A DNA stretch of 55,056 nucleotides, taken from positions 130,640 through 185,695 of the forward strand of contig JAZKJN010000002.1 in the NCBI GenBank assembly GCA_040384285.1, written 5' to 3'. The stretch is from Patescibacteria group bacterium. GTDB lineage: Bacteria; Patescibacteriota; Minisyncoccia; Phycocordibacterales; PALSA-1337. The first letter of the stretch is position 1, and each line of letters opens with the position of its first letter. The notes under the pieces are model-generated. The model ran no database searches. It had not been told where the DNA came from and saw only the letters and a list, made by a program, of their open reading frames with translations. Positions 9,185 to 55,056 of the stretch are shown here, one piece after another. Both the position numbers and the translations under genes were made by a program.

Positions 9185-9591
9185 GGGGATGAAAGGCCTC
9201 GACAGTTGAGGTACTTCCCTATGCGCATTGTAGAGCCCTACGGTCTCTTTAATCCCGTGGAAATCGTAACTGCACAATCAGCAATTACAAAAGTTAAGTC
9301 TTCTGTATCTCCATATTTTGGAGTGCAGGATCTTGCTTTCTCTTACGCTACGGTGTAAGTGACGCTCCGCACTTGGTGTCAAAATGAGTGTTGGAGTGAT
9401 ATAACCTTTGACTAGAAATTCAAGTCCCTTCCCTGCTTGAGTTTTGAAACTTCGGGAATCGCCTGCATATGTTTTGCAAACTTTAGAGTATGCAGGTTAA
9501 AAGAGGGCGACCTCGTGAAAGTCTGATATACAATGTAGAAGCGTAGTGAAACCTTATCTGCACGGCGGTTCAATTCCGCCCATCTCCACCA
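9185..9591 (+). ncRNA. ssrA: tmRNA (one-piece, 407 nt)
   Basis: 5' GGGGATG pairs with 3' CATCTCC-ACCA; T-arm GGCGG-TTCAATT-CCGCC; follows smpB; internal tag ORF present. Confidence 0.95.
9272..9358 (+). other. tmRNA tag reading frame AQSAITKVKSSVSPYFGVQDLAFSYATV*
   Basis: Resume context AATCGTAACT-GCA; 28 codons then TAA; hydrophobic C-terminus. The resume codon is inferred from the usual AACT-GCA context. Confidence 0.75.
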
Positions 9592-11085
9592 TCTGGAAGT
9601 TTGGGCAGAAATGTCAGAGGAGTCGCGCACCGCGACCACGGTTTCAGCCAATGAATTCCAGGGTTTAGTGAAGGAAACGGTTAGAGTTTGAGCGCGCAAA
9701 ATGCGGTTCGAGCCAACCTTTTTAAGAAATGACTTCATTTCTAACCGGTTGTCTTGCAAAGCCCATGTTTCTGCCTCATTTGCCAGCAAAACCCACTTTT
9801 TTAGGGGTTCGAGCCGACTCGTTTTACTCTTCTCCAACATCACGATCTGCTGGTCGAGTTCGACCTTTTTCGGAACAAGTGGGTTTTTCATTTCCTTGAA
9901 CTCTGCGAGGTCAAGGCCGCCGTCTGCGAAGGCGGTATTGAGTCGGTCCAACTTTGTCTTGAGAGACGCCTGCTCCGCGCGTAGCGCGTCAATGCGCTTC
10001 TGCTTTGCCTGAGATTCTTCGCCCTCCCACGTTTCGATTCTTGCAAGGAACCGTTCCTTCCATTTGTTCGGAATGGTGACAAGGCCGACATTCCGCTTCA
10101 CCTCCAGCCCGAACTTTTCCTCTCGCGTAAAGCTGCGGTCCTCGCACGGCACGTTTTTGTTCTTACGCGTGCAACGATAGTAGTGGAAGCGAAGGCCACT
10201 TTTTTTGACGTGCCGTTCACCCGTGATACAGTATCCGCATGACCCGCAGGTTGCGAAATCCAGAAAGGTCAGTTCCCTGTTCCCCTTCGTGTGCCGGGTC
10301 TTTCCGACTTTCAAAAGAGCCGCTTGAATTCTGTCGAAGGTTTCTTTGGAGATGAGCGGAACGTGGACGCCTTGGTGTAATTCGCCCGTGTGGGTGAAGA
10401 CACCGTAGTAGAACGGGTTGCGAAAAATCCTGACGATGGTCCCGAAGGTAAGCGGCTTGCCGCTAAGGTTTCCGACAATCCCGATCTTCTCAAATTCGAG
10501 TTGAATGGCTCTGAGCGAAAACGCACCAGTCGCAAACTTCCCAAAGATAGCTTTCATCTTTGGGAAGACCTCTGGATCAGGTTCCACTGTGCGAAGTTTG
10601 GGTTCGTTGAAGTATCCCATCGGCGCGAGGCCAGAATATACTCCACGGCGAACTTTCTCTCGGATGCCACGGCGGATGTCTCGGGACAAATCTCGCACGT
10701 ATTGATTCGCGATGCCGAATTCGAGCGCCATCATGATGACGTTGTCAGAAGGAAGATAAACACGCTCGAAGGTGCGAATTTCCTTAATCTGCGCTCGCTG
10801 GAGAAGGCCGATGATTCTTCCGCCGTCGTCAAAGTTGCGAGCGATGCGATGAAGCGCCCAGCATAAAATTCCATCCGCTTCACCCAACTCAATGCGTCGA
10901 AGCATGTCGTTGAAGACCGGACGGCCTGGCCCTTTCGCACTTTTGCTTTCCTCCAAGCGATCAACAATGACGAGGCCCTTTTCGAGAGCGATTTGGTTTA
11001 GCTCGGCATACTGAGCATCAATGGAAAGAAGCTGGCGATCTTCATCCTCGCTCGACTTGCGGCAATAAATGAAATACTTGAGCAT
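9412..11085 (-). CDS. Large serine recombinase (integrase); C-terminal 57 aa are read from the antisense strand of ssrA
   Basis: Catalytic YCRKSS, ESKSAKGPGRPVF, HRIARN; recombinase domain GLAPMGY; Zn ribbon CGSCG...YYRC...C; coiled coil. Likely start is MLKYF at 11085 (ORF track starts at 11091). Confidence 0.95.
   Translation of the reverse strand: MLKYFIYCRKSSEDEDRQLLSIDAQYAELNQIALEKGLVIVDRLEESKSAKGPGRPVFNDMLRRIELGEADGILCWALHRIARNFDDGGRIIGLLQRAQIKEIRTFERVYLPSDNVIMMALEFGIANQYVRDLSRDIRRGIREKVRRGVYSGLAPMGYFNEPKLRTVEPDPEVFPKMKAIFGKFATGAFSLRAIQLEFEKIGIVGNLSGKPLTFGTIVRIFRNPFYYGVFTHTGELHQGVHVPLISKETFDRIQAALLKVGKTRHTKGNRELTFLDFATCGSCGYCITGERHVKKSGLRFHYYRCTRKNKNVPCEDRSFTREEKFGLEVKRNVGLVTIPNKWKERFLARIETWEGEESQAKQKRIDALRAEQASLKTKLDRLNTAFADGGLDLAEFKEMKNPLVPKKVELDQQIVMLEKSKTSRLEPLKKWVLLANEAETWALQDNRLEMKSFLKKVGSNRILRAQTLTVSFTKPWNSLAETVVAVRDSSDISAQTSRWWRWAELNRRADKVSLRFYIVYQTFTRSPSFNLHTLKFAKHMQAIPEVSKLKQGRDLNF
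9584..9706. repeat. 123-bp perfect inverted repeat, left arm (last 8 nt of ssrA + integrase 3' region)
   Basis: Base-by-base reverse complement of 11602-11724; flanking bases differ on both sides. Confidence 0.97.
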
Positions 11086-11100
11086 AGACACATTTTACCA
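11086..11100 (-). promoter_or_regulatory. Extended -10 (TGgTAAAAT) 6 nt upstream of the integrase ATG
   Basis: Minus strand reads TGG-TAAAAT-gtgtct-ATG. Confidence 0.55.
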
Positions 11101-11127
11101 GAAGACAAAAGTAATTGCGACCATCAA

Positions 11128-11535
11128 ATGACATTCACGCCCAAAAAAGTTTCTAAACATCTGCTCGCATCGTTGCGAGGCACTTCCCCAAACGAGCGAG
11201 TGCTTCACCGGTTGCATAGCGTTGTGCTTGTGCTCAAGGGATTCTCCTGTTCGGACGCGGCGAGACTGTATGGAAATTCAGAGCGTATCGTGGCGTATTG
11301 GCTCAAGCGCTTTGAGGAACATGGAATTAATGGCTTGCGTGAAGGTGCTCGAAGTGGGCGTCCAAGCACGCTCACTCCAAAGCAACTTCGCGCAGTTCAG
11401 TCCTTCGTTCGGGCAGCGCAGTCGAAGAATGAAGACGCCACTGGACCTTCGCTGGCAGCATTCTTGAAATCGACCTTCAAGGTGTCGCTCACGAAACGTC
11501 AATGCAGACGAATTCTGAACCAGATTTCTTTTTAA
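11128..11535 (+). CDS. Stand-alone IS630-type helix-turn-helix protein (no DDE domain)
   Basis: AARLYGNSERIVAYWLKRFEEHGINGLREGARSGRPSTLT and a second wHTH (SLAAFLKSTFKVSLTKRQCRRIL); no catalytic domain follows. Confidence 0.8.
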   Translation: MTFTPKKVSKHLLASLRGTSPNERVLHRLHSVVLVLKGFSCSDAARLYGNSERIVAYWLKRFEEHGINGLREGARSGRPSTLTPKQLRAVQSFVRAAQSKNEDATGPSLAAFLKSTFKVSLTKRQCRRILNQISF

Positions 11536-11601
11536 CCGGTTAATCTCCTTCCTGGCTCGAAGTCGAATTGTGAGACGAGATGACAGAAGTGATTTATGTC
11601 T

Positions 11602-11724
11602 CCGCATTTTGCGCGCTCAAACTCTAACCGTTTCCTTCACTAAACCCTGGAATTCATTGGCTGAAACCGTGGTCGCGGTGCGCGACTCCTCTGACATTTC
11701 TGCCCAAACTTCCAGATGGTGGAG
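11602..11724. repeat. 123-bp perfect inverted repeat, right arm
   Basis: ccgcattttgcgcgctcaaac...cttccagatggtggag is the reverse complement of 9584-9706. Confidence 0.97.
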
Positions 11725-11773
11725 CATGTTGGAGTTAGCTCGAACCTTTTTCGATGAAAACCCAAGCGCTTGA
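11602..11773 (+). pseudogene. Detached copy of the integrase 3' end with an alternative C-terminus (...SRWWSMLELARTFFDENPSA*), attP-like
   Basis: Translation RILRAQTLTVSFTKPWNSLAETVVAVRDSSDISAQTSRWW is identical to the integrase, then diverges. Confidence 0.85.
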
Positions 11774-12488
11774 CCCATGCAATGACCAGGACTCGAACGA
11801 GCGTGAGGGTATCTCCACACCCCTCCCCGCAGTGGGGACAAGCGTGCATGTCAAAATCTCCTGACTGGTTAATGTTTTCTCTGCGTTTCCATGTGCTTGC
11901 ACCACCCCCGACATCGGTCGGTTTCCGGCTCGCACGGCGCTGGTATTTTCAGCGCGGTGCCGTGCTCGCCTCCAACCTCCCTCGTCGCTCACGCGACCAA
12001 CGAGTTCCCCCGACGGACGGTATTGGAGAATGTGAATGGCCTTCCCTCCGTCGTGAGACGGATCAAAGCTTGGTCACAAGCCTTCAAGGTGAACGCCGCC
12101 GTGTCGGCGGCTGGGTGGTTTCGGAATGCAAATATATTTTGGTCGTACTGTTGGCGATTTAGTTTGTTTATTTCCCGGCTCTCCCGCTCTGCGCCTCGCC
12201 ATCCAGCTTTCACCCCATATCCATCACCACGGTGTCTCTGCGACAACTGCATCACTTGCGCAGCGTGTTGAGGTAAAGGGCAACGCTGCGCTGGTGTGTT
12301 GGTTGGGCGCTCCGTGTGTATCGGAGCGCCCTTTTGTCGTCTTGAATTCCAACCCTCTGCCTGCTCAACATTCTCTCGGCAACCCGTTGTTGCCGTTCCC
12401 TAAGTTGGGGCGCTCGGCGTTGTTTCCGAGCGCCCTTTTCGTTGCCACTCCCCACAGATGTCTGAACCACTGGCGCAACGTCGCGCCC

Positions 12489-12707
12489 ATGGCATTCGGT
12501 GGAGCACAATACTTTCGTCGGCGTGAAGACTGCGTGGCGCGGACCACGCCGGCAGACAGCCCGCATCGTCAGTTCACGATCTATTGTGTGAAGTGCGACA
12601 GCTACATGGTGCGGGTGATCGCCGGCTACAATGAGGAAAGCGGCAGCGTGCAAATCGTGCTGCGCTGTGGGCAGTGCGGGAATGCGGAGTGCGTGGCGAA
12701 CGCCTGA
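12489..12707 (+). CDS. Small zinc-ribbon protein (72 aa)
   Basis: CVKC...CGQC in the C-terminal part of ORF 12126-12707; ATG at 12489 chosen as the plausible start. Confidence 0.55.
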   Translation: MAFGGAQYFRRREDCVARTTPADSPHRQFTIYCVKCDSYMVRVIAGYNEESGSVQIVLRCGQCGNAECVANA

Positions 12708-12710
12708 CGC

Positions 12711-13367
12711 TCAGAGCGAATCGGGAAGCGGTCGCAAACATTCCGGCCCATTGAAGGCTGGCGTGTTCATGCGGCGATCCACGGGATAGAACTCGAACCC
12801 TGTGAGTAATGGCTTTTCCAGAATGCTGCGGAAGCGGTCGCTCTTGGTGTCGAGCCATTCGCCTAGTAAGTCGTCGGGAACGACCACGGGCATTCGGTTA
12901 TGCACGAAGGTTAGCTCGGACGAAGCCTCGCGCGTCACGATGGCGAAGGTGTCCGTGGCTTCACCGCCCGGCTCGGCGTGCGCGTAGATGCCCGCGAAGT
13001 AGATCGGTTTCTCTTTCTGGCGGATGATGCGGTAGGGTTGCTTGCCGCCATTCTCGGTTTTCCATTCGTACCAGCCGCTTGCGGGCACAAGGCACCGTCG
13101 TCCGCCGATGGCTCCGCGAAAGAGCGGGCTGGTGGTGATGCCTTCCACGCGGGCGTTGATCGGTTTTACCTTCGGATTCTCTTTGGCCCAATGGGGAATA
13201 AAGCCCCATCGGAAACCTTCGCCCACGATTTCCTCACCACGCGGGAAGATGACGCCCGCGCGCTGGCTTGGTGCGAGGTTGAAGTTTTTTTGGAACTGGA
13301 AGGCAAAGCGTTCGCCGTGGATCGCCACGCGCATTTCCTCGCCGTTCTGGCTGAAACGTCCGCACAT
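12711..13367 (-). CDS. SOS response-associated peptidase (SRAP/HMCES/YedK family; abasic-site protection)
   Basis: N-terminal MCGRF (catalytic Cys2), NARVE, RCLVPASGWYEW, HNRMPV. Confidence 0.95.
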   Translation of the reverse strand: MCGRFSQNGEEMRVAIHGERFAFQFQKNFNLAPSQRAGVIFPRGEEIVGEGFRWGFIPHWAKENPKVKPINARVEGITTSPLFRGAIGGRRCLVPASGWYEWKTENGGKQPYRIIRQKEKPIYFAGIYAHAEPGGEATDTFAIVTREASSELTFVHNRMPVVVPDDLLGEWLDTKSDRFRSILEKPLLTGFEFYPVDRRMNTPAFNGPECLRPLPDSL

Positions 13368-13370
13368 GGG

Positions 13371-13577
13371 TCAAAGAGGGAGCGCTGGAAAGACCACGCG
13401 TTGCATCTCCTGTTGCGCGGCCAGAAAGTCAGCCTCCGCCTTTTGCCAGCGCTGCACGGTAGCGTCATCAACCTCCACCTCGACAGACGCAGAGTGGGTG
13501 CTTGCGAGATCGGCCAACTCGCCCACGTACCAGAACTGCGTGTCGTCTTGATTCAGGCGAAGTTTCATGGCGAACAA
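13371..13577 (-). CDS. Small hypothetical protein co-transcribed with SRAP
   Basis: Stop lies 3 nt before the SRAP ATG; protein-like composition. Confidence 0.6.
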   Translation of the reverse strand: MFAMKLRLNQDDTQFWYVGELADLASTHSASVEVEVDDATVQRWQKAEADFLAAQQEMQRVVFPALPL

Positions 13578-13795
13578 ATAACGCCGCGCGGGGACGGGCG
13601 CAACGGGAAGCCGGGGGTGCGATCACAGATGTTTTGCCCGATAGCACATCTGTCAAACCGGGTTGAATTAGCGCGGTGCATTCCACATGCGCGCGATAAG
13701 GAGCGGCGTAGGTTTCCCCGTCGCCGTGGGTTCGGTCCATTTCCCACCTGCGACAAACCCAGGCGGGGCCAGATGCGTTGCTGGCCTCGCCACTT

Positions 13796-14332
13796 TTATT
13801 TTGGCAGCAGTCCGATTTCAGGCCAGAGCGGTTCAAGATCCTTTTCGTCCAGCGCGGTGAGCTTCCAATGCTTCTCCGTGCCGTTGCGCTCCGCAACTTC
13901 AAGCGCGGTGTCCAGCCAACTGCGCGCCTCGGCCATCTTTCCAATCTGGCAGTTGTAGCAGGCGAGAGTGAACGGCAGCAGCGGTTCGTCCGGGAAGTCG
14001 TTGATTGCGTCGAGCAAGAGCGCCAGCGCGCTTTCGATGCCACCGGTCGGCATCCTGCGCGCGGAATACGAGCGCCATGCGAACACCTCGGCGTCATCAG
14101 GCAGAAGCCGCGTCAGTCCCTCCGCCACGCTAAACGCCATCTCATGCTTGTTGGCTTGGTTGAAGATCCGCCAGCGCAGTTTCAGCACGTCGGGCCGGGC
14201 GCGCTCTCGCGAAGACAACTGCTCCAATTCCTCGTAGGCGCTCAGGAAATCGCCGAGTTCAATCCAGCCCTCGGCGGCGCGGATGTGCTGCTCAGTGCGG
14301 GCGTCCGTGTTCAATGCGGCGGACGCTAGCAA
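13796..14332 (-). CDS. Tetratricopeptide-repeat protein
   Basis: HIRAAEGWIELG, AFSVAEGLTRLLPDDAEVFAW, LPFTLACYNCQIGKMAEARSWL helical repeats. Confidence 0.8.
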   Translation of the reverse strand: MLASAALNTDARTEQHIRAAEGWIELGDFLSAYEELEQLSSRERARPDVLKLRWRIFNQANKHEMAFSVAEGLTRLLPDDAEVFAWRSYSARRMPTGGIESALALLLDAINDFPDEPLLPFTLACYNCQIGKMAEARSWLDTALEVAERNGTEKHWKLTALDEKDLEPLWPEIGLLPK

Positions 14333-14379
14333 GGCAACGGCGGGCTTGCCAGTCGCGCGTGAACGTGAAGGATTGGCGC

Positions 14380-14967
14380 GTGAAAATCCCCGGCTGCCTG
14401 CTGGCCCTGCTGCTGTCTGTCGTCTGCGCTGTTGGCGCGACGGTGCAGGACTACGCGGACAAGATCGCGCCGCTCATTGATCCGGCCAAACTGGCGGAAC
14501 TTCGGGAGCGTGGAGCAAATCAGCGCGTCCAGAAAATCACCTACTACCTTTACTCCGCCAAAAAGGATCGGCTGGATGCCACCGCCGTTGCCAGAGCGGC
14601 AGTCAAGGACGTGCGGATGAAGAAAGCCGCTGGCGATCTGACGGTGTTAGCCATGATGCGCAACGTGAGGATTGCGGAGCAGTTGGGCTGCACTGATGCC
14701 GCCGGGTTGTCTGAAATGCGCAAAGGCAATGCGGCCACGGTACGCTTTGGTCCTTACGCGGGCGATCAACTCTCGGTGGACCACATCATTCCGTTTTCAG
14801 TCGTGCCGGAACTCGACAAGGTGATCGCGAATTTGGAGTTGATGCCCTCGCGGATGAACTCGAAGAAAAGCGCGAGCGTTGGGCAGCGGCAGCGAGACCT
14901 TGCGACGAAGCTGAACAAGGCCGGGCTGCTCAGTGACGTGGGCTTGAGGGCAGTGGCAAGTCGCTAG
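14380..14967 (+). CDS. Exported protein with a C-terminal HNH-like motif
   Basis: Hydrophobic N-terminus IPGCLLALLLSVVCAVGA (GTG start inferred); SVDHIIP...ANLELMPSRMNSKK. Confidence 0.7.
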   Translation: MKIPGCLLALLLSVVCAVGATVQDYADKIAPLIDPAKLAELRERGANQRVQKITYYLYSAKKDRLDATAVARAAVKDVRMKKAAGDLTVLAMMRNVRIAEQLGCTDAAGLSEMRKGNAATVRFGPYAGDQLSVDHIIPFSVVPELDKVIANLELMPSRMNSKKSASVGQRQRDLATKLNKAGLLSDVGLRAVASR

Positions 14968-15011
14968 GGGCGCTGCATGTTTAGGCGCAACGCCAAACTC
15001 GAACAAACCAG

Positions 15012-16172
15012 TCACAGCTTTTTCAACCGGTAAAAACGGGCGCTTTCCGAAGCGTTGTTCGTGACGAACCATTGCCCCTCACTAAGAACGGGCGGATTGG
15101 TCACATCACCCCAAGCGGCATTCGAAGTCAAAACAAGCGTCGATTGCAGGCAGAACGCGGAGGCATACGCGGGCCAGATGAGAACGACATCGCCTCCGTT
15201 CCACCTCGTCTGCAACGAGACAGGGAAGCCCACCAAGGCAGCAGAATTATAACCGCCGGCGGCCACCGCCGTCACTCCCGTCAAACCGGCGGGCGCTGCG
15301 GTCTGACCGTAGCCGTTAAATCCCCAGGCCACCACGGTACCGTCACCCTTCAAGGCCAGCATGTGCCCTCCTTCATCGCTATCTCCTCCTCCGGCTATGG
15401 CTTTGACTCCGCTTTGCGCGGCCAGCGGCACGACTCTTTCGCCATGACTGCTGGGACCCCAGACCAAAACCAGACCGTTCGATTTCAAAACCGCGCTGTG
15501 CAAATACCCTGCGGCCATGGCCATGTTCGTGAATCGAGCCGAGTAAGGAACCTCCAGCGGCTCGTCGGGATCGTCGCGATTGTCCCCCCACTCGGACACC
15601 AAACCGTTGGCTTGCATGATTAAACTGTGATCGCCACCGGCGGCGATGGCTGTGACTCCGGTCGAACCGGTCGGCCCTGTAACCTGATCATAGAAGTCAT
15701 ATCCCCACCCCACGACCGTGCCGTCGTTTTTCAAAGCGAGACTGTGATCAAGCCCGGCCGCGATAGCCACCACCCCGCCTTGAGCTGCCACCGGGACATC
15801 AGTCTGGCCGTCCCCATTATATCCCCAAGCCACCACCGAACCGTTGGTTTTCAGGGCCAAGGTATGAAAACCTCCCGCGGCAATCGCCGCGACCCCGCTC
15901 TGTGCCGCGACTGGGACCGTCGCCTGACCGGTGTCATTCCGGCCCCACGCCACCACGGAGCCATTAGTCTTCAAAGCCACCACATGCCCGCCTTCGTAAT
16001 CTCCTCCCACGGAAATCGCGATCACGCCGCCCCGCGCCGCCATGGGAACATTCGTTTGGCCGTCAATGCTCCATCCCCACACGATCACCGTGCCCGGATC
16101 GACCGCGAAGGCAGCCATCGCCCCTGTGCATGCTCCGAGGAACGTCATCAATGGGAACCAATATCTTAGCAT
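15012..16172 (-). CDS. Secreted RCC1/BLIP-II-like 7-blade beta-propeller with a C-terminal ...RFYRL domain
   Basis: Signal peptide; repeats AIAAGxxHxLALKxxGxVVAWGxNxxGQ; C-terminal LIWP...LQST...WGDVTN...RFYRLKK. Confidence 0.9.
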   Translation of the reverse strand: MLRYWFPLMTFLGACTGAMAAFAVDPGTVIVWGWSIDGQTNVPMAARGGVIAISVGGDYEGGHVVALKTNGSVVAWGRNDTGQATVPVAAQSGVAAIAAGGFHTLALKTNGSVVAWGYNGDGQTDVPVAAQGGVVAIAAGLDHSLALKNDGTVVGWGYDFYDQVTGPTGSTGVTAIAAGGDHSLIMQANGLVSEWGDNRDDPDEPLEVPYSARFTNMAMAAGYLHSAVLKSNGLVLVWGPSSHGERVVPLAAQSGVKAIAGGGDSDEGGHMLALKGDGTVVAWGFNGYGQTAAPAGLTGVTAVAAGGYNSAALVGFPVSLQTRWNGGDVVLIWPAYASAFCLQSTLVLTSNAAWGDVTNPPVLSEGQWFVTNNASESARFYRLKKL

Positions 16173-16365
16173 CGGGGGTTTATCGTCGGATATCTGTGAC
16201 TACCTAAGAAGGTGAACCATGCTGACGCGTAACGACCCAAGCTCAGCGACTAACGCCGAGAGGCAAGGTGGGGCGCACGAGACGTGTCCAAATTGCCGCC
16301 CCGCTCTTCTGTTCGGAGCGGGGCGGCTGTTCGAGCTAGCACATGTTTGGCCATCGCCTTGGTTG

Positions 16366-17811: not shown

Positions 17812-18025
17812 TTTCTCCTTTTTTGTTTTGTTGTTTTGTTGGTTTGTGCGTTCTTACGGAAATCCATTTCTTGTTTGTCGTTGTGCGCGTCGGGATGTCC
17901 AACGTCCGAAGTTGGTGGCCCGCTCACCAACTACATGGTAATTCCGCAGCTAAGGTTGCGGATTTTCTTTCACCCCAAGTGACGCCAGTTCTGGCGCCGG
18001 TTCTGCAAGGGCTTTTCCCGGCAGC

Positions 18026-18052
18026 AAAAAGGCGCGACGGTGAGGTCGCGCC
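18026..18052 (-). terminator. Intrinsic terminator (8-bp stem + U5 on the minus strand)
   Basis: Minus strand GGCGCGAC-ctcacc-GTCGCGCC-TTTTT, downstream of 18229-19221. Confidence 0.7.
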
Positions 18053-18228
18053 CTGTCCGCAAAAGAATATCGCCGGGCTTCGCACCCGGCGGCTGTGACT
18101 TGGCTTCCTGCCATGGAGTCGGTTGCCGCGCTAAAAAACGCTATTTTGAGGCATGATTCCCCCCGTTTGGACTAATCGATTGCGTCGACAATTCGACTCA
18201 GGCGAGGATGAATTTCACCATTACGCTC

Positions 18229-19221: not shown

Positions 19222-19229
19222 GGGCGCGA

Positions 19230-21512: not shown

Positions 21513-21519
21513 GATTCGC

Positions 21520-40318: not shown

Positions 40319-40348
40319 GTTCAGTTTTGCGCTAGTGTCGTCGAGGTG

Positions 40349-41900: not shown

Positions 41901-41904
41901 GAGG

Positions 41905-46722: not shown

Positions 46723-47240
46723 GCATTTGTACTAGAGTGGTAGTTTGTCAGGACGCAAGAACCCGACAATTAAAGCGCGTAGCTACAGAGAATGAATTAA
46801 ATGCCTTTCCTTTTGACGCAGTACTCAGAGAGCGTCTTAGGGAGCAATGTAACCGCGATCTTGCGTTGATGTTGCTCCTGCGTGAGAAAGATCGTGAGGT
46901 GTGGTTGTTTGACGGTTATGAGGACGACCTTGTCACACCCATAAAAACTCCCGCTCTAGGCGCGGACAAACTAAATGCACTCATTACTCAGAACGCAGCA
47001 AATGGTTTGGTGTTTGACCTGGCATATTTTGGAGATTTTGAATACGGGATGGAGATGCTGCGTGCCCTTCAGAAGATGGGTACTCTTCACTCTCTGACCA
47101 AACTTGTGGTTGTATCCTGGTTTTTGCACGAGCAGATGCATGATTTTCCTCGCAGACTTTCTGACGAATTCAATGTGCAGCCTGAACGGCTTGTTTATGC
47201 GCTGCGGGCTCCGATTGACCACATCGAGTCGCTACTTTAG
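46719..47240 (+). CDS. Atypical receiver-domain protein translationally coupled to the kinase
   Basis: ATGA overlap at 46719; WLFDGYEDD, LVFDLAY (Asp), GMEMLRAL, KLVVVSW; no KP motif. Confidence 0.65.
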   Translation: MSICTRVVVCQDARTRQLKRVATENELNAFPFDAVLRERLREQCNRDLALMLLLREKDREVWLFDGYEDDLVTPIKTPALGADKLNALITQNAANGLVFDLAYFGDFEYGMEMLRALQKMGTLHSLTKLVVVSWFLHEQMHDFPRRLSDEFNVQPERLVYALRAPIDHIESLL

Positions 47241-47276
47241 TGGGTTTTCGACTCTGCCGGAAGATTTCCCATAGGT

Positions 47277-47379
47277 TCCCCTTGGGGAGGAATCCGGCAG
47301 GGGGTCGGAGACGCCCCTCGGTCAGCCATCGCACGCACGAAAAAGCCCCGCCTTCATGCCGGGCAGTTCCGAGACTGAA
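47277..47379. repeat. ~100-bp imperfect direct repeat, copy 1 (contains a minus-strand terminator)
   Basis: ggggaggaatccggcagggggtcggagacgcccctcggtcagcca..gcac.cacgaaaaagccccgc...agactgaa is shared with 50711-50822. Confidence 0.85.
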
Positions 47380-47405
47380 TACACGAGTCCATTGCGCAAC
47401 TTGAA

Positions 47406-48116
47406 TTATTTTCTCTTAGGACTGCACAGCACTGTGTAGGTCAGAAACAACTCGCCTCGCAGCACTTTCAACTTTTTCAGCTTAAGCCTGATCGCACCTC
47501 TGATCGATTTCACGCCCTCCCCATCACAAAATGTTGGAGCGTGGCTTCCGCACAGCACCAGAGGACAGATGGTCAAACGCACTTCGTCAACGACACCCGC
47601 TTGCAGAAGTGCCGCATTTGTTTTCCCTCCGCCTTCGCACAGGAGTCGTTTGATTTTCAGTTCACGGCGCAACCATCGAAATGCGCTCGGGAAACTCAGT
47701 TTCTTTCTTCCAAAAGCTTTTACGGTTGCTAAGCCCTTCAATCGGGTGGAGCACTTTCTGAATGCCTTTTCCGTTGTGAGAACTATCACTGGTGATGCGC
47801 ACTTGTGAAAAATTTCAGCGTGCGGATCGATATTGCCATCCTCACACCCCAAGACCCGCAAGGGCTCTGACGAAAGCCCGCGCTTTAGGCGTTGCTTGCG
47901 CCTCGCATTTGAACCGGGGCCGAGATCGAGTGAGAAAGCTTTAACCGTGTTTGCGCCACAAAGAACGGCATCGGCAGTCGCACGAAGTTGCAGAACGAAT
48001 TGTTGGTCGCGAGCACTGCTGAACTGGATCACCGTGCGATTCTCCAAAGCCAACTTTCCATCTGCCGACACGGCACCATTCATAAATACAAACGGCAGAA
48101 CATGTTGGCGAGACAT
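47406..48116 (-). CDS. RibD C-terminal-like reductase (DHFR fold), stand-alone
   Basis: MNGAVSADGKLA, LRATADAVLCGANTV, RLLCEGGGKTNAALLQAGVVDEVRLTICP. Confidence 0.9.
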   Translation of the reverse strand: MSRQHVLPFVFMNGAVSADGKLALENRTVIQFSSARDQQFVLQLRATADAVLCGANTVKAFSLDLGPGSNARRKQRLKRGLSSEPLRVLGCEDGNIDPHAEIFHKCASPVIVLTTEKAFRKCSTRLKGLATVKAFGRKKLSFPSAFRWLRRELKIKRLLCEGGGKTNAALLQAGVVDEVRLTICPLVLCGSHAPTFCDGEGVKSIRGAIRLKLKKLKVLRGELFLTYTVLCSPKRK

Positions 48117-48268
48117 TGAGTGACGTCACTGTAGCCTCCGATAGAGCAACGACAATTCAATTTGCCCTTCGATTACCTCTCCTGGGTTGGAACACCCTTC
48201 CGTTGGCGAGTTATGGCAAAAACAGGGTGAAAAACCTGTGAAGAAGTGTGAACAAAATAATCTTGCCC

Positions 48269-48316
48269 CCGCAAGCTGTAGTGCGAACATCGTCACACCT
48301 CAACTAGATGTTGTGG
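48269..48316. promoter_or_regulatory. Tandem NrdR-box-like operators, 32 bp apart
   Basis: ccgCAAgcTgTAGtgc (48269-48284) and caaCTAgATgTTGtgg (48301-48316) versus consensus acaCwAtATaTwGtg. Confidence 0.55.
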
Positions 48317-48317
48317 G

Positions 48318-48492
48318 TCAACGGCCTCTGTGAAGCTGTTGAATTCTGCACGGCGACGAGGCAAGCCCGCCGCCGTGCAGGTTAAACGGGTCAGCGTGAG
48401 CCAACCGCGTCTGGACAACAAAGGTTAGGCTCACGCTCGACCCTTCAACAATAAAAAGTTGCTCACATTCGGTATGGCTTGCCGGTGAGCAA
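48318..48492 (+). ncRNA. Candidate structured RNA / 5' leader of the lamin-tail gene
   Basis: Stems 48346-48355/48371-48380 (10 bp), 48388-48406/48423-48443 (~19 bp, 2 bulges), 48337-48343/48444-48450, 48459-48466/48485-48492, and an alternative stem 48318-48325/48335-48342. Strand is inferred from the downstream gene. Confidence 0.5.
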
Positions 48493-48506
48493 GTGGAGAA
48501 CAGTCC

Positions 48507-49025
48507 ATGAACAACTCATTGTTCATTCATCGGGCCAAGCCTAATCCGCTTGGCAAAGACACGGCTCAACACATTCCTAAGCCAGAACAGTTGCTGGGCG
48601 AATGGGTTGATCTGGTCAACAACAGTAACGCGGGCATAAACCTTGGAAATTACTCCTTGGCTAACCTGCAATTCGATTCGCGGTGCGCCCCAGTCGGGCC
48701 GCCGCAAATCTACTGGTCAGGAGACGCGGCAATAACACTGGGACCGGGGCAAATAGTCCGTATCCATACAGGACGGGCCGCCGATTGGTGGGTGGCTCAT
48801 CAAGAGGACAAAACTGGAGTTCATTACCACTCCTGTGCCGAGCGCGGCTCATTCGTACTCAATAACCGCTGTGGCGACACAGTGAGTATCTGGACGAAGG
48901 ACCGGCTGGGGAATTGGCAGAACGTCGATATTGCTTCGTACGATCCCAATCCGCCCGAAGGTGCCATACTTGAACGGTCGGGTAGCAAGTTGGTTGTAGG
49001 TGTTCGTTCTAGGCTCTACGCCTAG
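48507..49025 (+). CDS. Lamin-tail-domain (LTD)-like protein
   Basis: GEWVDLVN...INLGNYSL, ITLGPGQIVRIHTG, VLNNRCGDTVSI; GGAGA RBS. Confidence 0.75.
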   Translation: MNNSLFIHRAKPNPLGKDTAQHIPKPEQLLGEWVDLVNNSNAGINLGNYSLANLQFDSRCAPVGPPQIYWSGDAAITLGPGQIVRIHTGRAADWWVAHQEDKTGVHYHSCAERGSFVLNNRCGDTVSIWTKDRLGNWQNVDIASYDPNPPEGAILERSGSKLVVGVRSRLYA

Positions 49026-49207
49026 TCCACGGTTCCTCTTCGAACAGGAGAGCCACTTCGGTGGCTCTCCCTTTTTGTCTTGGTAATTGGGAAAGCCTTT
49101 GTCGGACTCCGCTTGCGCTGAAATGGCTCGGTTCAATCGCTCGTTAATGACGAAGCATGTCAGTTTTAGGGAAACATGCAGTATTGCCATAGAAACTAAA
49201 GTTTGTA

Positions 49208-49501
49208 GTGTCGGTCATGCAAAAGGCCGCGCGATTCATCGTGATAGCTGCGCTTTGTTTGGTCGCGACCGTCAACCAGCTCTATGCTGACTCCATCGCG
49301 ATTTCCTCAAGCAGTAGCGCAAATAGCGCCATCAATTTTGGCTCTCCCCCTTCGGAGTCCAACAACGATGTTCTGATTGCTGTCGTAAGCGGAATGTTCG
49401 GCCTTGCAGGAGTAGTCCTCACCGCCTTTATCGCTCAAAATCGTAAATCGCGTACCGGCGCTCGCTCGCGCAATGCAAAAGCGCGTGGAAAATCTGACTG
49501 A
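49208..49501 (+). CDS. Small exported/membrane protein (97 aa)
   Basis: Signal-like N-terminus, Ser-rich linker, TM, basic tail. Confidence 0.55.
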   Translation: MSVMQKAARFIVIAALCLVATVNQLYADSIAISSSSSANSAINFGSPPSESNNDVLIAVVSGMFGLAGVVLTAFIAQNRKSRTGARSRNAKARGKSD

Positions 49502-49579
49502 ATCATGGAGAATTAATGCCAACGATGCACTTGATTCGCCCTTGACGGCCTTGCGGTTTAGGTCAAAAAAGTCTCCAAA

Positions 49580-50422
49580 ATGATCTCCATCAAACTTAAG
49601 AAAGTTTCACTGATAGCTTTCTCGCTGATGAGTGGAGTATTGTCAGCACAATCTGAGGTAACTCTCGCAACTCTCCGGGCAGAGATTCAGGGAACTTTGC
49701 GTGCCTACTCCGATCCAGCGTCGGAGTTAAAAACCACCCTCACACTTCTTACCAACGACGTCTTGATTATCGAAACAACGAAAATTGAGGCCCGGAATCA
49801 GGTGACGGAATATCGGCTGCTCGATTTAGGCTCCGGCAGACGTGTAGCTATGACGCTTGGAGGCAAGCGTGCAGTGGAACTACACATCGAAGCAGTTGAT
49901 CGCAACGTAATGACAACAGGGTATTCAGTTCAAAGAGGGAAAACTAATCAACTGACAAGAACGCAATTGCAAGAGCTCCAGTTTAATTTCAAACCTGCTC
50001 AAGCTCTGTACGCCAGCCAATGCGCGGAGCTCTGGAAGGAGCTCTTCGAGAAAGTTGGCTTGGAGGTAAGATTTTTTGATGAAATCCCGGCAGAACCGCC
50101 CGTGGATCGAATCCCGCGCTCTTCTCCACCGGTCCGGTCGCCGAGGTCAAATCCGCCCTCAAGCGAAGAAGAGGCGTCGGTATTTGTCACCGTGGAAAAA
50201 GAGCAAATAACAGGCGCCACGTTTGTAGGATTCAACCATTTCATAAGAAACAAGCACAAGAGCAAAGCAATTCAAGTACGAGTGCTTGGATCGACCACAG
50301 GGAGCGGTTATGTAGATCCCAGTCCCAAAGTTGTGGTCGTTCAACCACAGGATAGAGTGTCCTTGGGCACGACTGATGCGTTTGTTACTTACAAAATTCT
50401 CCACTCGGAGTTTAGAAATTGA
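49580..50422 (+). CDS. Exported two-domain hypothetical protein (280 aa)
   Basis: Signal peptide (..VLSA-Q); Pro-rich linker between two beta-rich domains. Confidence 0.7.
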   Translation: MISIKLKKVSLIAFSLMSGVLSAQSEVTLATLRAEIQGTLRAYSDPASELKTTLTLLTNDVLIIETTKIEARNQVTEYRLLDLGSGRRVAMTLGGKRAVELHIEAVDRNVMTTGYSVQRGKTNQLTRTQLQELQFNFKPAQALYASQCAELWKELFEKVGLEVRFFDEIPAEPPVDRIPRSSPPVRSPRSNPPSSEEEASVFVTVEKEQITGATFVGFNHFIRNKHKSKAIQVRVLGSTTGSGYVDPSPKVVVVQPQDRVSLGTTDAFVTYKILHSEFRN

Positions 50423-50710: not shown

Positions 50711-50822
50711 TCCCCCTGGGGGAGGAATCCGGCAGGGGGCAGGGGGTCGGGGACGCCCCTCGGTCAGCCAACGCACACACGAAAAAGCCCCGCTTCGCAG
50801 CGGGGCGATTTCGCAGACTGAA
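50711..50822. repeat. ~110-bp imperfect direct repeat, copy 2 (minus-strand terminator GCCCCGCT-GCGA-AGCGGGGC-TTTTT)
   Basis: Aligns with 47277-47379; has an extra CAGGGGG duplication. Confidence 0.85.
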
Positions 50823-51798: not shown

Positions 51799-52533
51799 CT
51801 ACACCCTTTGCGGTGGGGCCACGGAGTCGAAATTTGCGCGGACGAGATCAACCACTCCTTGCATACAAATGTTCCAGTGCTTGGCTAACGCTTGATAAAC
51901 CACATCTACGTCTGTCGGTTTGCATGGTGATCCTCCAGTCTTTGCGAATGGGCCGTCAGATTCTACCAAGACCCGGTCGGGGGGCGTGCATTCCAAAATT
52001 CGTTTTCCCTTAGCAGTGCATAGCATCGCTGGATTGATTGAAACAAAATGACCATCGGAAATTACTTCAAGAAGAACTTTCTCAGTTCCTGTGAACCAAT
52101 GGAATACGGACTTTCTGATTTTGTGGCGTCGAAGCGCCTCCATAACCGCACTCTCAGCCCCTCGGCTGTGCAACGTGATAAATCGTGGACGATCATTGAG
52201 GGCGCAAAGAACCTCCTCGAAAACACGCACTTGAATGGGCTTCGATGCCAGTCCTTGCCGCGAGAAATCGAGGCCGATTTCCCCAATGAAGTGAGAGTAA
52301 GGCGCCATCTGCTTAAATGCGCCCAGTTCGCGGATGCCTTCAGCCGCGAAGAGTGGATGCATCCCCAAAGCCGGAGATACAAGTTTGTGCCCGCAGAGCC
52401 TGTCGGCAGCGACTGCGAAGTGCGAAGGAAGATTCGTGACAGCAACGACTCGTATCGCGCTCCTCTCACACTCCCGGATCACTTCTTCGGGCGAAGGAAA
52501 CTGGTCAATGTGACAGTGTGTGTCGATCAGCAT
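51799..52533 (-). CDS. qatD: QatD, TatD-family nuclease
   Basis: IDTHCH, ALGMHP, IGEIGLD, TLHSRG, VFHWFTG, VESDGP; last gene of a qat-type operon. Confidence 0.9.
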   Translation of the reverse strand: MLIDTHCHIDQFPSPEEVIRECERSAIRVVAVTNLPSHFAVAADRLCGHKLVSPALGMHPLFAAEGIRELGAFKQMAPYSHFIGEIGLDFSRQGLASKPIQVRVFEEVLCALNDRPRFITLHSRGAESAVMEALRRHKIRKSVFHWFTGTEKVLLEVISDGHFVSINPAMLCTAKGKRILECTPPDRVLVESDGPFAKTGGSPCKPTDVDVVYQALAKHWNICMQGVVDLVRANFDSVAPPQRV

Positions 52534-53864
52534 GCTCTAACTTCGTTCTTCAAATACGCCGAGCCGCTTGCTTTTAACCAAGTGAGCACTTCGGCACGCA
52601 TTCGTTTAACCAAATCCACGTACAACGTAAGCTGGTCTAGTGGCAGTGAACCATTTCCGAGAAGGCCGGCAGCAATCTCTCGATCGGGTGGGTTTCGTCG
52701 TACGAACGTCAGGAGAGCTAAAACATCCAAGGGAGTGCTACTGAGGGAAGTGATTGCCTCAATCCGCTTGCCATACGCCTCATCGTCCCGACCGCTGCTG
52801 TGCAGTGAAGCCCGACGAAAAAGGCAAGGGATGCAAACGCCGCAAGATCGGGCCTTTCGATCACTCCATGCCTCGCGGTGGTTTGCTTTTGCGCACGAAC
52901 GAGATAACGCATAGGTGTCGTTCAGGAAAGTTTGATCCTGGCACTCGTCAACCATTTCGCCTTTTGTTTTCAGCTCGTATGGATTTTGGACGGGATTCAA
53001 AATATTCACCCGTTCTAAGATACGATTAAGGTCCGCAATAAAATGGGGGTGAACCGTTCGGGTGCTACAGGAGCCACGGCGCGCAGGGGTAAGGGGAAAA
53101 TTTAAGGCGATAGGACCGTTCTCGGGAATTAAAATAGGTATTCGTTCTCCGAGAAGTTCCCCAAAGTAACAACCAAGCGCGACGAAGAGTAGTGAACGGC
53201 TGCGAAAATTAGTGTCCGCGCTACCCGATGAAAGTCCAACCTGAGTTTGAGCCAATTCAAATCGCCCGTTAAATTTCAAGCGCACGGCGTCTTCTAAAGC
53301 TCGCTGATCCACGCCTGGACCTGAGACGTGCCTGTCATAGTGCCCAACTAAAAGTAATTTTTCGCTGGGATTTTCGGTGAGCCAGTCCACTGCTCCGATG
53401 AAGGAATCCAACCCTCCTGAGAAGAGGCAAACAGCTTCACCAGTGGCACGCTTAAACTTAACGCTGCGCTGTCTGGGCTTCTTTTGAACTAAACGCTTCT
53501 CACCGTGCCTGAAAGTGATTTCCCAACGATCGCCAGTTAAGAAGCTGATACAGTCCGATAGGTCATTAACGACATTGGTCCAAGTGCCCACATGCTCGAC
53601 AGGAATTTCGATGGCTAGGTGTCGGGTCCACTTATCTTCCGCTCCATCCCTTGGCACCGCTTTGTCCGCAGCGTAGACGCACGAGGCAATGCACAGAAAA
53701 TCCTGAGCTAGGTCCGGCACGGTCCGCGATACTTTAAGAAGCGCGGTCGCATCTACATCGAGAACAACGTTTTCGGTTTGTCCGTCGAAATGGAGAGCAA
53801 GCTTGGCGGTCTCTTTCCTGAAATCAGCCTCCGGCGCGATCGTTATGGTGATGTCTTTTCTCAT
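52527..53864 (-). CDS. qatC: QatC, QueC-like protein
   Basis: LFSGGLDS, RSRSLLF, PENGPIALN, TKGEM, SCAK...CGVCIPCLFRR. Confidence 0.92.
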   Translation of the reverse strand: MRKDITITIAPEADFRKETAKLALHFDGQTENVVLDVDATALLKVSRTVPDLAQDFLCIASCVYAADKAVPRDGAEDKWTRHLAIEIPVEHVGTWTNVVNDLSDCISFLTGDRWEITFRHGEKRLVQKKPRQRSVKFKRATGEAVCLFSGGLDSFIGAVDWLTENPSEKLLLVGHYDRHVSGPGVDQRALEDAVRLKFNGRFELAQTQVGLSSGSADTNFRSRSLLFVALGCYFGELLGERIPILIPENGPIALNFPLTPARRGSCSTRTVHPHFIADLNRILERVNILNPVQNPYELKTKGEMVDECQDQTFLNDTYALSRSCAKANHREAWSDRKARSCGVCIPCLFRRASLHSSGRDDEAYGKRIEAITSLSSTPLDVLALLTFVRRNPPDREIAAGLLGNGSLPLDQLTLYVDLVKRMRAEVLTWLKASGSAYLKNEVRAC

Positions 53865-54667
53865 AGCTGCTCTCCGAAGATCTCAATCGTGTCCGCGACG
53901 ATACCGTCCACAATCGCTGCCCCGCTAACGCCATTCCAATCCACAGATGAAAGTTTATGCGACGCTTGCAGTCCGCCGATTTTTGCATTGATGAAATCTC
54001 GAATCTGGCCAGCCATGCTATTAGCTTTTTCAAAGCCGTGGGTGGCTAGGACGCCCTGATAACCGACGGTCTTGAAAACCTCGAAAATGTAATGCCCGAA
54101 AAAGTCATGAAGCGCGCCTTCAATATTTTGGGCGATGTTTGTTACCGACTCGATCAAACCATTGATTCCTTGCACGCCCTCTGACCATTTGAGAACCATT
54201 TCCATGAGGGCACCACGCAGCGCGGTTTGCTCAATCAGGCTCGCAGGACCGCCAAGCAGATCAGCTAGTGCCAGCGCGATTTCATCCGGGGTCTTGCCGG
54301 TCAAATCGGTCAATCCACGCTCGGCAAGCGCCTCACGAAATCCTTTAGTTCCAACATCTGCGAGAAAGCCGCCGACTCCGCGTGCAACAGTACGCGCAGA
54401 TCCAGCAATCCGGCGGGTTCCGCCGCCACCTCCTCCCCCGCCGACACCGGATCCACTTCCGCCTGAGGTAGCGGTTGAATTTCTTCCCTGAGGAGAAAGG
54501 GGCGTTCCGAAACCTAGTTGTGAAGCCCTCGCCATCTGCGCGACAAAGCCACTGACAACCGACGCGGCTTTCTGGGGCGTGACATGCCCTGCGCCTCCTG
54601 CTCGGGTAGCTTCATTTTTTGCGGGACTCCAGTTTGGCGAGCCCGAGTAATTAGTTGACGTGCCCAT
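53861..54667 (-). CDS. qatB: QatB
   Basis: N-terminal MGTS, Gly-rich segment, helical body; sits between the ATPase and QatC with an ATGA overlap. Confidence 0.85.
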   Translation of the reverse strand: MGTSTNYSGSPNWSPAKNEATRAGGAGHVTPQKAASVVSGFVAQMARASQLGFGTPLSPQGRNSTATSGGSGSGVGGGGGGGGTRRIAGSARTVARGVGGFLADVGTKGFREALAERGLTDLTGKTPDEIALALADLLGGPASLIEQTALRGALMEMVLKWSEGVQGINGLIESVTNIAQNIEGALHDFFGHYIFEVFKTVGYQGVLATHGFEKANSMAGQIRDFINAKIGGLQASHKLSSVDWNGVSGAAIVDGIVADTIEIFGEQL

Positions 54668-54670
54668 AGG

Positions 54671-55056
54671 TCATCTTTGTTTCTGTTTGAGCGCTTTGCC
54701 GAAGAGCGTTTTGTTGTCTTCAGCAAAATCGTTCGTGATCGCCCGACATGCTTCTCCCAGTGCGTTCGGCTTCGTCGCTAGCGATTGAATCTCTATAGCC
54801 AGTGCTGGTGGTAGTTCAGCTCTTGGAATTCTGGCAACAAGCGCTCGAAAGCTCTCAGCAGCGCTCCCGTCAATAGTTGCTATCTCGGTCAGCGCACGAA
54901 ACGGTTTAATTTGATTTGGTTTTTGTTGCGCGTGCGAAATGAGCAATTGAGCCAAACTCGCGCGCTCCAATGGCTGAAGCCTCGAAATTTCTTTTCGCGC
55001 AGCGACGTCGCCCATGTCACTCAGTAACTTCTTGAAAATTTCACGCACGATGGTTG
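54671..55056 (-). CDS. qatA: QatA (KAP-family ATPase), C-terminal fragment; gene starts beyond the window
   Basis: Frame open to the window edge, stop 3 nt before qatB. The call rests on operon position; the ATPase motifs are outside the window. Confidence 0.7.
   Translation of the reverse strand, partial: TIVREIFKKLLSDMGDVAARKEISRLQPLERASLAQLLISHAQQKPNQIKPFRALTEIATIDGSAAESFRALVARIPRAELPPALAIEIQSLATKPNALGEACRAITNDFAEDNKTLFGKALKQKQR

Follow-up and report, generated by a model that had tools for sequence, protein, structure and literature searches.

A Verrucomicrobiota-type serine recombinase element probably integrated at the tmRNA gene of a Patescibacteria chromosome

The ssrA junction and the recombinase cassette

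The window analyzed here is the whole 55,056-nt stretch of contig JAZKJN010000002.1, from a Patescibacteria group bacterium (assembly GCA_040384285.1). Within it, a chromosomal arm typical of Patescibacteria, or candidate phyla radiation (CPR) bacteria, meets GC-rich DNA at the 3′ end of the transfer-messenger RNA (tmRNA) gene ssrA, beside the gene of a large serine recombinase (LSR). We consider it likely that this GC-rich DNA, 45 kb or more in length (from 9584 to 55056 or beyond), is a Verrucomicrobiota-type mobile element that has integrated into a Patescibacteria (Paceibacterota-like) chromosome at the CCA end of ssrA. The features on either side of the junction are as follows.

1-9183: Patescibacteria chromosomal arm, assigned by NCBIfam, FtsH identity, gene order, and G+C content at third codon positions (GC3)
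2-523, + strand: RecG C-terminus (NCBIfam equivalog)
813-3980, − strand: 1055-aa surface protein, encoded by a repeat-rich gene
4026-5819, − strand: 597-aa protein
5880-5954, − strand: tRNA-Ile(UAU)
5971-7902, − strand: FtsH (NCBIfam equivalog)
8717-9166, + strand: SmpB (NCBIfam equivalog)
9185-9591, + strand: tmRNA (ssrA), the B arm of the left attachment site (attL); ARAGORN, and Rfam RF00023 at 100.8 bits over its full length
9584-9706: proximal repeat arm R, made of the core CTCCACCA and the p′ arm, which encodes the last shared recombinase residues
9592-11091, − strand: LSR, 500 shared residues (Pfam Resolvase, Recombinase, Zn_ribbon_recom)
11128-11535, + strand: small helix-turn-helix (HTH) protein, divergent from the LSR gene (Pfam HTH_32/HTH_28)
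11602-11724: distal repeat arm R′, which together with 11725-11773 forms an internal inverted attP-like site (P-core-p′)
11725-11773, + strand: P arm, encoding the conserved C-terminal tail of the LSR (…WW-SMLELARTFFDENPSA-stop)

To judge from housekeeping-gene identity and local gene order, the left arm is Patescibacteria chromosome. FtsH is 82-91% identical to many metagenomic proteins, the longest contigs among those matches being shorter than 0.83 Mb. Only two of its matches are organism-named: “Patescibacteria group bacterium” (87%) and “Candidatus Paceibacterota bacterium” (82%). Three relatives (L106-L108) have the same order of tRNA-Ile(UAU), FtsH, SmpB and tmRNA, and a similar long tag peptide. 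The window tmRNA carries the long CPR-type tag (AQSAITKVKSSVSPYFGVQDLAFSYATV), the tag of the CPR relatives reads ATSALSKVKSAVSPYFG..., and Verrucomicrobial tags are ANEELALAA-like. The named FtsH matches, the synteny and the tag thus agree in placing the left-arm genes in Patescibacteria, as an earlier note made from the sequence alone had supposed. L106 and L107 carry the tRNA-Ile(UAU) beside FtsH with 100% identity across 77 nt, and L108 has it too; a UAU-anticodon tRNA-Ile is an unusual means of reading AUA, here conserved in the lineage.

The earlier note had also described an abrupt compositional shift after ssrA. Both of its spot counts were reproduced exactly (23/60 G+C at 5401-5460 and 40/60 at 14041-14100). 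Overall G+C is 0.466 at 1-9183, 0.511 in the recombinase cassette (9584-11724), and 0.529 at 11725-55056, where 1-kb bins reach 0.61 and AT-richer islets lie at 36-40 kb and 44-47 kb. GC3 parts the two arms more sharply than overall G+C: it is 0.386-0.407 in five left-arm genes and mostly 0.52-0.77 in right-arm genes.

The two boundaries that had been singled out, at 9591/9592 and 11724, correspond to the outer edges of an inverted repeat of 123 nt with identical arms (9584-9706 and 11602-11724). The core CTCCACCA at 9584-9591 is also the 3′ end of the tmRNA. In each of the 24 junctions read among the LSR loci that we collected, the 3′ end of the recombinase gene meets the acceptor end of a tRNA or tmRNA gene to the base, and in 23 of them the CCA is encoded. 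The window reads CTCCACCA/TCTGGAAG across the junction and Verrucomicrobial tmRNA loci read CTCCACCA/TCTTGAAC. Because it has the same acceptor-end position as these 24 relatives, the join in the window is the canonical integration (att) junction of the LSR family. Furthermore, the tmRNA genes of the CPR relatives L106, L107 and L108 end in ...CATCTCCAC (…CTCCAC/A…), without an encoded CCA, whereas that of the window ends in ...CTCCACCA. It thus seems that the element contributes the terminal CA. Nearly all bacteria have the tRNA-Ala-like acceptor end on their tmRNA, so integration across phyla at this target is plausible.

A different LSR occupies the same gene in L106, whose FtsH is 88% identical to that of the window. 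This 531-aa recombinase (6851-8815) reads into the 3′ end of ssrA and belongs to a different family, having no tblastn match to the window LSR at 1e-5. Its island is AT-rich and carries MerR, SHOCT and an Eco57I-like methylase. Thus, ssrA is a recurrent landing site in this CPR lineage. In L108 the ssrA site is empty.

The window LSR has the domain set of a large serine recombinase integrative element: a catalytic domain (PF00239, 62 bits), a Recombinase domain (PF07508, 38.9 bits) and a zinc ribbon (PF13408, 22.3 bits, just below its cut-off). As assembled, its open reading frame (ORF) continues antisense through ssrA to 9412. The tail encoded in the P arm comes into frame only with the cassette flipped or the element circular. 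A tail motif, LAR-x-FFDENP, occurs at the same place in L002, L003, L004 and L014 (three Verrucomicrobiota loci and one Berkelbacteria locus). This conserved in-frame peptide beyond R′ indicates that the natural C-terminus of the LSR lies across the att core, and therefore that the right arm begins with element sequence. A near-perfect inverted repeat brackets the LSR gene in 8/8 of the loci tested first (68-197 nt) and in 6/8 of those tested later (111-126 nt). The stretch X-R′ was also considered as a degenerate tRNA 3′ end and rejected, since it has no T-arm pairing and encodes the conserved tail instead. On one short contig of recombinase clade A, described below (L091, 180-255), a tRNA-Ala lies upstream of the LSR start and not downstream; a flipped cassette would look so.

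Assembly support for the two ends of the element

We compared the window with the independent Logan k=31 contigs and unitigs of one sequencing run (SRR26324625). Pieces longer than 1 kb have a depth of 6.1-8.6x in the left arm and 5.9-8.8x in the right arm, with the cassette at 6.9x. Depth falls to 4.3x in short pieces of the repeat-rich surface-protein gene, and the repeat-arm unitig, at 13.1x, has about twice the depth of its neighbors. A 54-nt unitig (9560-9613, 9.9x) leads from the end of a CPR-type tmRNA into the element, and a 52-nt unitig (11695-11746, 8x) leads from R′ into the right arm. We looked for the break in depth or graph that the earlier note had proposed as a check at 9591/9592 and 11724; none appears in the even k=31 depth or in the junction unitigs.

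At 9556-9589, this tmRNA contains a 34-nt word (depth 32) that at least one other tmRNA of the sample also contains. By exact identity, its in-edges come from this tmRNA (8.4x) and from another AT-rich CPR-type tmRNA (5.4x), and its out-edges lead to the element (9.9x) and to another flank (5.8x). Since both in-edges are CPR-type, either pairing attaches the element to a CPR-type tmRNA, and depth pairs the edges as they stand in the window. No Verrucomicrobial tmRNA enters this node of the k=31 graph. The CPR-specific bases (…CCGCCCAT) are joined to the element at 9.9x; Verrucomicrobial tmRNAs read …CCGCCGC there and differ at several of their last 30 bases. The repeat arm has two outer neighbors among the records listed, so no second genome of the sample appears to share the cassette.

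The right end of the window coincides with the end of a Logan k=31 contig, at exactly base 55056. In a protein collection, the FtsH, RCC1 and coupling-protein-like proteins of the window are all recorded on one 218,372-nt contig. Taken together, these observations suggest that a long CPR contig breaks off inside the island and that the window is probably its last 55 kb.

Evidence on the far end comes from the first 30 bases of the right arm (11717-11746), which have a second left neighbor: a 2,924-nt Logan contig at 7.8x that ends ...TATATCACTAT/TGGTGGAGCATGTTGG. Read on the opposite strand, this contig runs from the P arm through CTCCACCA into ATAGTGATATAAT... and is joined to DNA of ~20% G+C. 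The cargo of L002 and L040 lies between the arms of a second inverted repeat, likewise perfect (266 nt and 94 nt, respectively), and the far end reads P-CCACCA-flank. Because it has the same form as these far ends, we take the 2,924-nt contig to be the right attachment site (attR), which would place AT-rich DNA on both sides of the island at the same depth. The two ends thus have a short core in common: attL has the form found in 24 relatives, and the attR-like P-CTCCACCA-B′ is in the Logan assembly. A P-core-p′ junction is also present in the assembly but is accounted for by the internal inverted site. An empty site for this tmRNA was not seen in the k=31 graph, where the exact out-edges lead only to the element and to the flank of another organism.

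The perfect inverted repeats are nested in the window (9584-11773), in L002 (514-11518) and in L040 (1883-4698). One pair brackets the LSR and HTH genes, and the second (P arms of 94-266 nt) brackets the cargo. This arrangement gives three core sites, namely B/p′, P/p′ (inverted) and P/B′, which imply a circle with two inverted attP sites and an LSR ORF spanning the core.

A search across sequencing runs located the left arm or the cargo in a single run. The other runs contain only 90-95% relatives of the LSR and HTH genes or of SmpB and tmRNA. One of these, from another study (X3, 8700-11055), has low-depth relatives (~91-95%) of both SmpB/tmRNA and the LSR, which is suggestive, without demonstrated linkage. 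A soil run (X2) has relatives of the LSR, of the HTH gene and of 11986-12318, but no left arm.

Affinities, mechanism and competing explanations

The LSR search gathered 17 loci from species genomes and 80 from JGI metagenomes. Among genomes, it recovered one Verrucomicrobiota clade, one Patescibacteria clade, and one fragmentary match in an unclassified bacterium. In a maximum-likelihood tree of the recombinases, clade A is split from clade B with 100% SH-aLRT support. Clade A comprises the window and 24 sequences that are 59-74% identical to its LSR, including all three named Verrucomicrobiota metagenome-assembled genomes (MAGs), one of them a 5.9-Mb chromosome. Clade B comprises 43 sequences that are 43-51% identical to it, including every named Patescibacteria MAG. 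The HTH gene has homologues (38-54% identity) in 33 loci of clade A but in none of clade B (CPR). Clade-A loci always have the HTH gene, a tRNA-side flank of 0.54-0.68 G+C, and standard (ANEELALAA-like) tmRNA tags; clade-B loci have no HTH gene and a G+C of ~0.29-0.47.

The right arm also contains two blocks of backbone genes, the second of which is interrupted by a gene pair of different composition.

20247-23719, + strand: backbone block 1, comprising a 421-aa type IV coupling protein (T4CP)-like ATPase (T4CP421), a 244-aa protein and a 337-aa DnaG-type primase (Pfam)
34198-35172, − strand: Replic_Relax protein, in backbone block 2 (34198-44099; Pfam)
within 34198-44099, − strand: 146-aa and 134-aa proteins, in block 2
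40349-41969, − strand: two DNA methylases (Pfam)
42357-44099, − strand: 580-aa T4CP-like ATPase (T4CP580; Pfam)
36446-39885, + strand: AT-rich GHKL and PRTase pair interrupting block 2 (PADLOC candidate PDC-M65)

Homologues of block 1 adjoin clade-A recombinases. T4CP421 is 60% identical to proteins beside them in L033, L034 and L097, and 48% in L046; the primase has homologues in L047 (58%), L046 (39%) and L023-L025 (52-57%). The methylase MT278 is 72% identical to homologues in the clade-A loci L053 and L035, and CsgG-like homologues (33-42%) occur in the clade-A elements L039, L053, L035 and L098. In the Verrucomicrobiae locus L004, homologues of T4CP580 and Replic_Relax (47-48%) are adjacent and stand beside the LSR. 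The region at 30-44 kb is syntenic with L020-L022, from other metagenomes, with 69-91% protein identity in block 2. Identities there are 91% for T4CP580, 88% for the 146-aa protein, 86% for MT278, and 83% each for Replic_Relax and the extracytoplasmic function (ECF) sigma factor; in L020/L021, the ECF factor (83%) and a 994-aa protein (42%) have counterparts in the same order. Remoter relatives of T4CP580 (66-70%) lie on a 4.26-Mb contig and in an Opitutaceae MAG, the latter being its only named match.

The RCC1 protein that the earlier note had recognized, together with its C-terminal RL-type ending, is a PF13540 protein (148 bits). Six of its eight organism-named matches are Verrucomicrobiota, and a C-terminal ...(F/Y)(F/Y)RLxxP domain is found in four of those six and in the two best unnamed matches. 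The impression of a Verrucomicrobia-style cargo is therefore supported by the relatives of the RCC1 protein, the T4CP-like ATPases, the LSR and the backbone, although few of these relatives are named; those that are named are mostly Verrucomicrobiota (LSR clade A, 6/8 for RCC1, Opitutaceae for T4CP580). On sequence comparison, Verrucomicrobia-type elements also supply the nearest or the named relatives of the HTH protein, both T4CP-like ATPases, the primase, Replic_Relax, the methylases, the ECF factor and the RCC1 protein. Within the sample the element is seen in the CPR context only; outside it, protein identity reaches 74% for the LSR and 91% for the T4CP.

From the observed anatomy, we infer how the element would integrate. 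The free form would be a circle with two inverted attP sites (P-core-p′), which would divide it into a small arc with the LSR and HTH genes and a large cargo arc. For integration, the LSR would pair one attP with a tRNA or tmRNA gene at its tRNA-Ala-like acceptor end (core ...CTCCACCA) and recombine the two. The product would read tmRNA-core-p′, then LSR and HTH, then p′-core-P (internal and inverted), then the cargo, then P-core-B′. Its insertion would give the tmRNA back a 3′ end, with the CCA that CPR relatives do not encode, and a flip of the cassette or excision of the element would restore the tail of the LSR. Uptake of DNA, or transfer via the T4CP-like ATPases during cell contact, are both possible routes of entry. 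The acquisition looks recent because all cargo ORFs are intact and their GC3 is unameliorated. The locus looks like a rare, fresh cross-phylum transfer into a symbiont.

Several points weigh against a Verrucomicrobiota-type element in a Patescibacteria chromosome. The far end of the element lies outside the window; on the anatomy above, the far-end copy of P must lie beyond 55056, where both assemblies stop. The flank of the putative attR is known for 30 nt only, and its CPR identity is inferred from composition and depth. Neither the window nor any of the fetched loci contains these 30 nt, the downstream flanks of the CPR relatives being too diverged for recognition. Flow through the P arm in the graph is unequal (8 + 7.8 in, 8.78 out), which fits only if the graph merged the far-end copy of P or clipped a tip. 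At k=31, depth pairing alone resolves the link of this tmRNA body to the element, and all of this evidence comes from one ~7x run, probably also the source of the contig, seen as assembled words. Finally, the locus search was seeded with peptides of this very LSR and few homologues are organism-named, so the taxonomic spread may be wider.

The earlier note had named a chimeric contig as the competing explanation: the assembler would have crossed from a CPR tmRNA, via its conserved 3′ end, into an element of a Verrucomicrobial or other diderm genome. We regard this as very unlikely. The word at 9556-9589 that is shared with another tmRNA (depth 32), the many organisms at similarly low depth in the sample, and the fact that the window is the only clade-A element seen beside a CPR-type tmRNA would all suit a chimera. 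However, 31-mers derived from reads link the CPR-specific …CCGCCCAT to the element at 9.9x, and the two tmRNA bodies leading into the shared word are of an AT-rich CPR type, with no Verrucomicrobial one among them. The join also sits precisely at the canonical position of the att site, there is an attR-like junction leading into AT-rich DNA, and depth is even across the window. A real linkage would also be compatible with an old resident of CPR genomes, or a family native to them, in place of a recent import from Verrucomicrobiota. LSRs of a sister clade, built on the same plan of inverted repeats, are widespread among Patescibacteria, one Patescibacteria MAG (L008) encodes a 40%-identical T4CP421 homologue, and ssrA of the CPR relative L106 is likewise occupied, by a different LSR island. 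Nevertheless, we find such a native origin improbable, because the window LSR nests in clade A and not in clade B, the HTH gene is confined to clade A, and GC3 shows no amelioration (0.52-0.77, against 0.39-0.41 in host genes). Furthermore, relatives with 86-88% identical FtsH have an empty site or an unrelated AT-rich island, and the cargo has no match in any other run.

A further possibility is that only the 2.1-kb LSR cassette is mobile, resembling an insertion sequence at ssrA, and that the GC-rich 43 kb beyond it is a separate island or chromosome segment. The cassette, with its near-perfect inverted repeats of 68-197 nt, is indeed self-contained in every locus tested in the first set, and L040 is nearly cargo-free, with 480 nt between its P arms. 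But conservation extends to the P arm beyond R′, where the tail of the LSR is encoded, the second inverted repeat of L002 and L040 puts attR past the cargo and hence the cargo inside the att sites, and homologues of T4CP421, the primase, the CsgG-like protein and the methylase accompany clade-A cassettes. These observations leave a mobile cassette beside unrelated DNA extremely unlikely.

If the integrated Verrucomicrobiota-type element is what it appears to be, large foreign elements can enter and integrate in reduced CPR genomes, with the tRNA-Ala-like acceptor end of tmRNA serving as a cross-phylum landing pad. It would bring toxin, sigma-factor and defense modules into a cell thought to lack an outer membrane. 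To our knowledge, the hosts of most Patescibacteria are not known, and the element is a concrete candidate for a Patescibacteria host link. A stronger proposal is that the element family shuttles between Verrucomicrobiota and Patescibacteria by physical contact, the window being a fresh host-to-episymbiont transfer and hence a host marker. The family-level pattern of one Verrucomicrobiota and one Patescibacteria LSR clade fits such a shuttle, and the element could then be used as a marker to pair CPR lineages with their hosts. We think this proposal doubtful, and the use of the element as a pointer to the host correspondingly weak, because the sample offers no second host context, a near-identical donor is not known, and PMC12455944 lists no Verrucomicrobiota donors.

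Comparison with known systems and cargo of the right arm

We know of few documented cases of recent whole-element transfer with recognizable att sites into Patescibacteria. In a study of transfer and genomic islands in this group (PMC12455944), the donor table has Omnitrophota, Bacteroidota and other phyla but not Verrucomicrobiota, and most events are single genes with 4-35% divergence; the window, by comparison, holds an intact element of at least 45 kb with identifiable att sites.

Genomic islands at ssrA and tRNA 3′ ends, as the classification of Williams 2002 is cited in bioRxiv 10.1101/2020.12.28.424599, likewise insert at the 3′ end of tmRNA, keep the gene intact by supplying the displaced end, and have the integrase beside attL. 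Such islands mostly use tyrosine integrases and direct repeats, whereas the window has an LSR, a crossover at the CCA end, and nested inverted repeats. The tycheposons of Prochlorococcus (bioRxiv 10.1101/2020.12.28.424599) likewise place cargo at tRNA and tmRNA genes of a streamlined genome and carry primase or replication genes together with defense or niche cargo; 27/937 encode a large serine recombinase. This likeness is one of description. Their hosts are cyanobacterial, their description gives no sign of two inverted attP sites or of an LSR ORF spanning att, and the window adds T4CP-like ATPases and Replic_Relax.

The domain set of Resolvase, Recombinase and zinc ribbon is common to the window LSR and to the recombinases of known LSR elements (SCCmec CcrA/CcrB, the XisF fdxN element, Tn4451/Tn5397). 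Its best NCBIfam matches are CcrB (58.7 bits, cut-off 900) and XisF (54.8 bits, cut-off 375), and with scores so far under the cut-offs it is not a member of either family. The window also differs from elements of these types in its target, a tRNA-like acceptor end, and in a cassette bracketed by perfect inverted repeats of 100-200 nt. The nested, two-attP design matches no LSR element known to us and could interest developers of serine-integrase tools.

Like integrative mobilizable elements and integrative and conjugative elements (ICEs) of actinomycete type that have an FtsK/TraD-like ATPase and a Rep/relaxase, the window has an integrase, a coupling-protein-like ATPase (TrwB_AAD_bind, TraG-D_C), Replic_Relax and a primase. 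It differs from them in having no identified relaxase of a typed MOB family, origin of transfer or type IV secretion system, so any ability to transfer is putative. General Pfam and NCBIfam profile scans of the window detected no mating-pore or type IV secretion genes, only the two T4CP-like ATPases, Replic_Relax and the primase; the element within the window is thus not an ICE, its far end lying outside.

The remaining genes of the right arm are listed below.

12711-13367, − strand: SRAP protein, in cargo block 1 (12711-20003; Pfam)
13796-14332, − strand: TPR protein (Pfam)
14314-14967, + strand: HNH-like protein (Pfam)
15012-16172, − strand: RCC1 protein
16366-17811, − strand: Hint-zincin protein (Pfam)
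18229-19221, − strand: CsgG/FlgO-like protein
19230-20003, − strand: 257-aa protein
23879-24304, − strand: small putative immunity protein
24217-29952, − strand: predicted C39-RHS toxin (Pfam/NCBIfam)
29973-32957, − strand: 994-aa beta-helix-like protein
33194-33796, − strand: ECF sigma factor
44545-46722: PAS histidine kinase, in the variable cargo (44545-50422; Pfam)
within 44545-50422: 232-aa protein, in the variable cargo
47406-48116, − strand: RibD_C reductase (Pfam)
48507-49025: lamin-tail-domain protein (Pfam)
49580-50422: 280-aa predicted exported protein
51799-55056, − strand: QatABCD anti-phage system, with QatA cut by the end of the window
51799-52533, − strand: QatD (PADLOC)
52527-53864, − strand: QatC (NF041925, 332 bits, cut-off 280; PADLOC)
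53861-54667, − strand: QatB (PADLOC)

Profile searches recovered most of the protein types that the earlier note had named in this cargo. The CsgG/FlgO-like protein is present (43.7 and 40.1 bits), and so is an RHS protein, which also bears a C39 peptidase domain. The CsgG-like protein is read as secreted, as are the RCC1 and Hint proteins, and the ECF factor, the beta-helix-like protein and the C39-RHS toxin make up one module. The description of the cargo as diderm-adapted was not supported beyond the weak CsgG/FlgO match and style. The ECF sigma factor is confirmed by the generic model TIGR02937 (58.9 bits), but its assignment to a family specific to the Planctomycetota-Verrucomicrobiota-Chlamydiota group is not. 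As a candidate member of the Rhodopirellula/Verrucomicrobium family TIGR02989, it scores 37.4 bits against a curated cut-off of 124.55.

QatC, QatD and QatB lie in one operon and make the Qat system a standard member of its family; the truncated QatA gave no match. The GHKL-ATPase/tandem-PRTase pair matches the candidate system PDC-M65 in PADLOC (B, 68.5 bits; A, 20.7 bits). Its slot is variable; the closest relative (L020, 14281-15981) has an unrelated 566-aa gene there.

In the gene-poor stretch at 11725-12710, Rfam and folding gave nothing significant. A 119-nt part of it (11902-12020) recurs letter for letter in two runs of another study (X3 and X4), with both flanks different. It has no Rfam match and a fold z-score of only −1.9, and it may be a small mobile or conserved element.

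GC-rich direct repeats of ~100 nt (47278-47371 and 50713-50813) are 84-96% identical and lie 3.4 kb apart. They bracket the RibD_C, lamin-tail and 280-aa genes and may be the ends of a small inserted module or repeated terminator-like elements.

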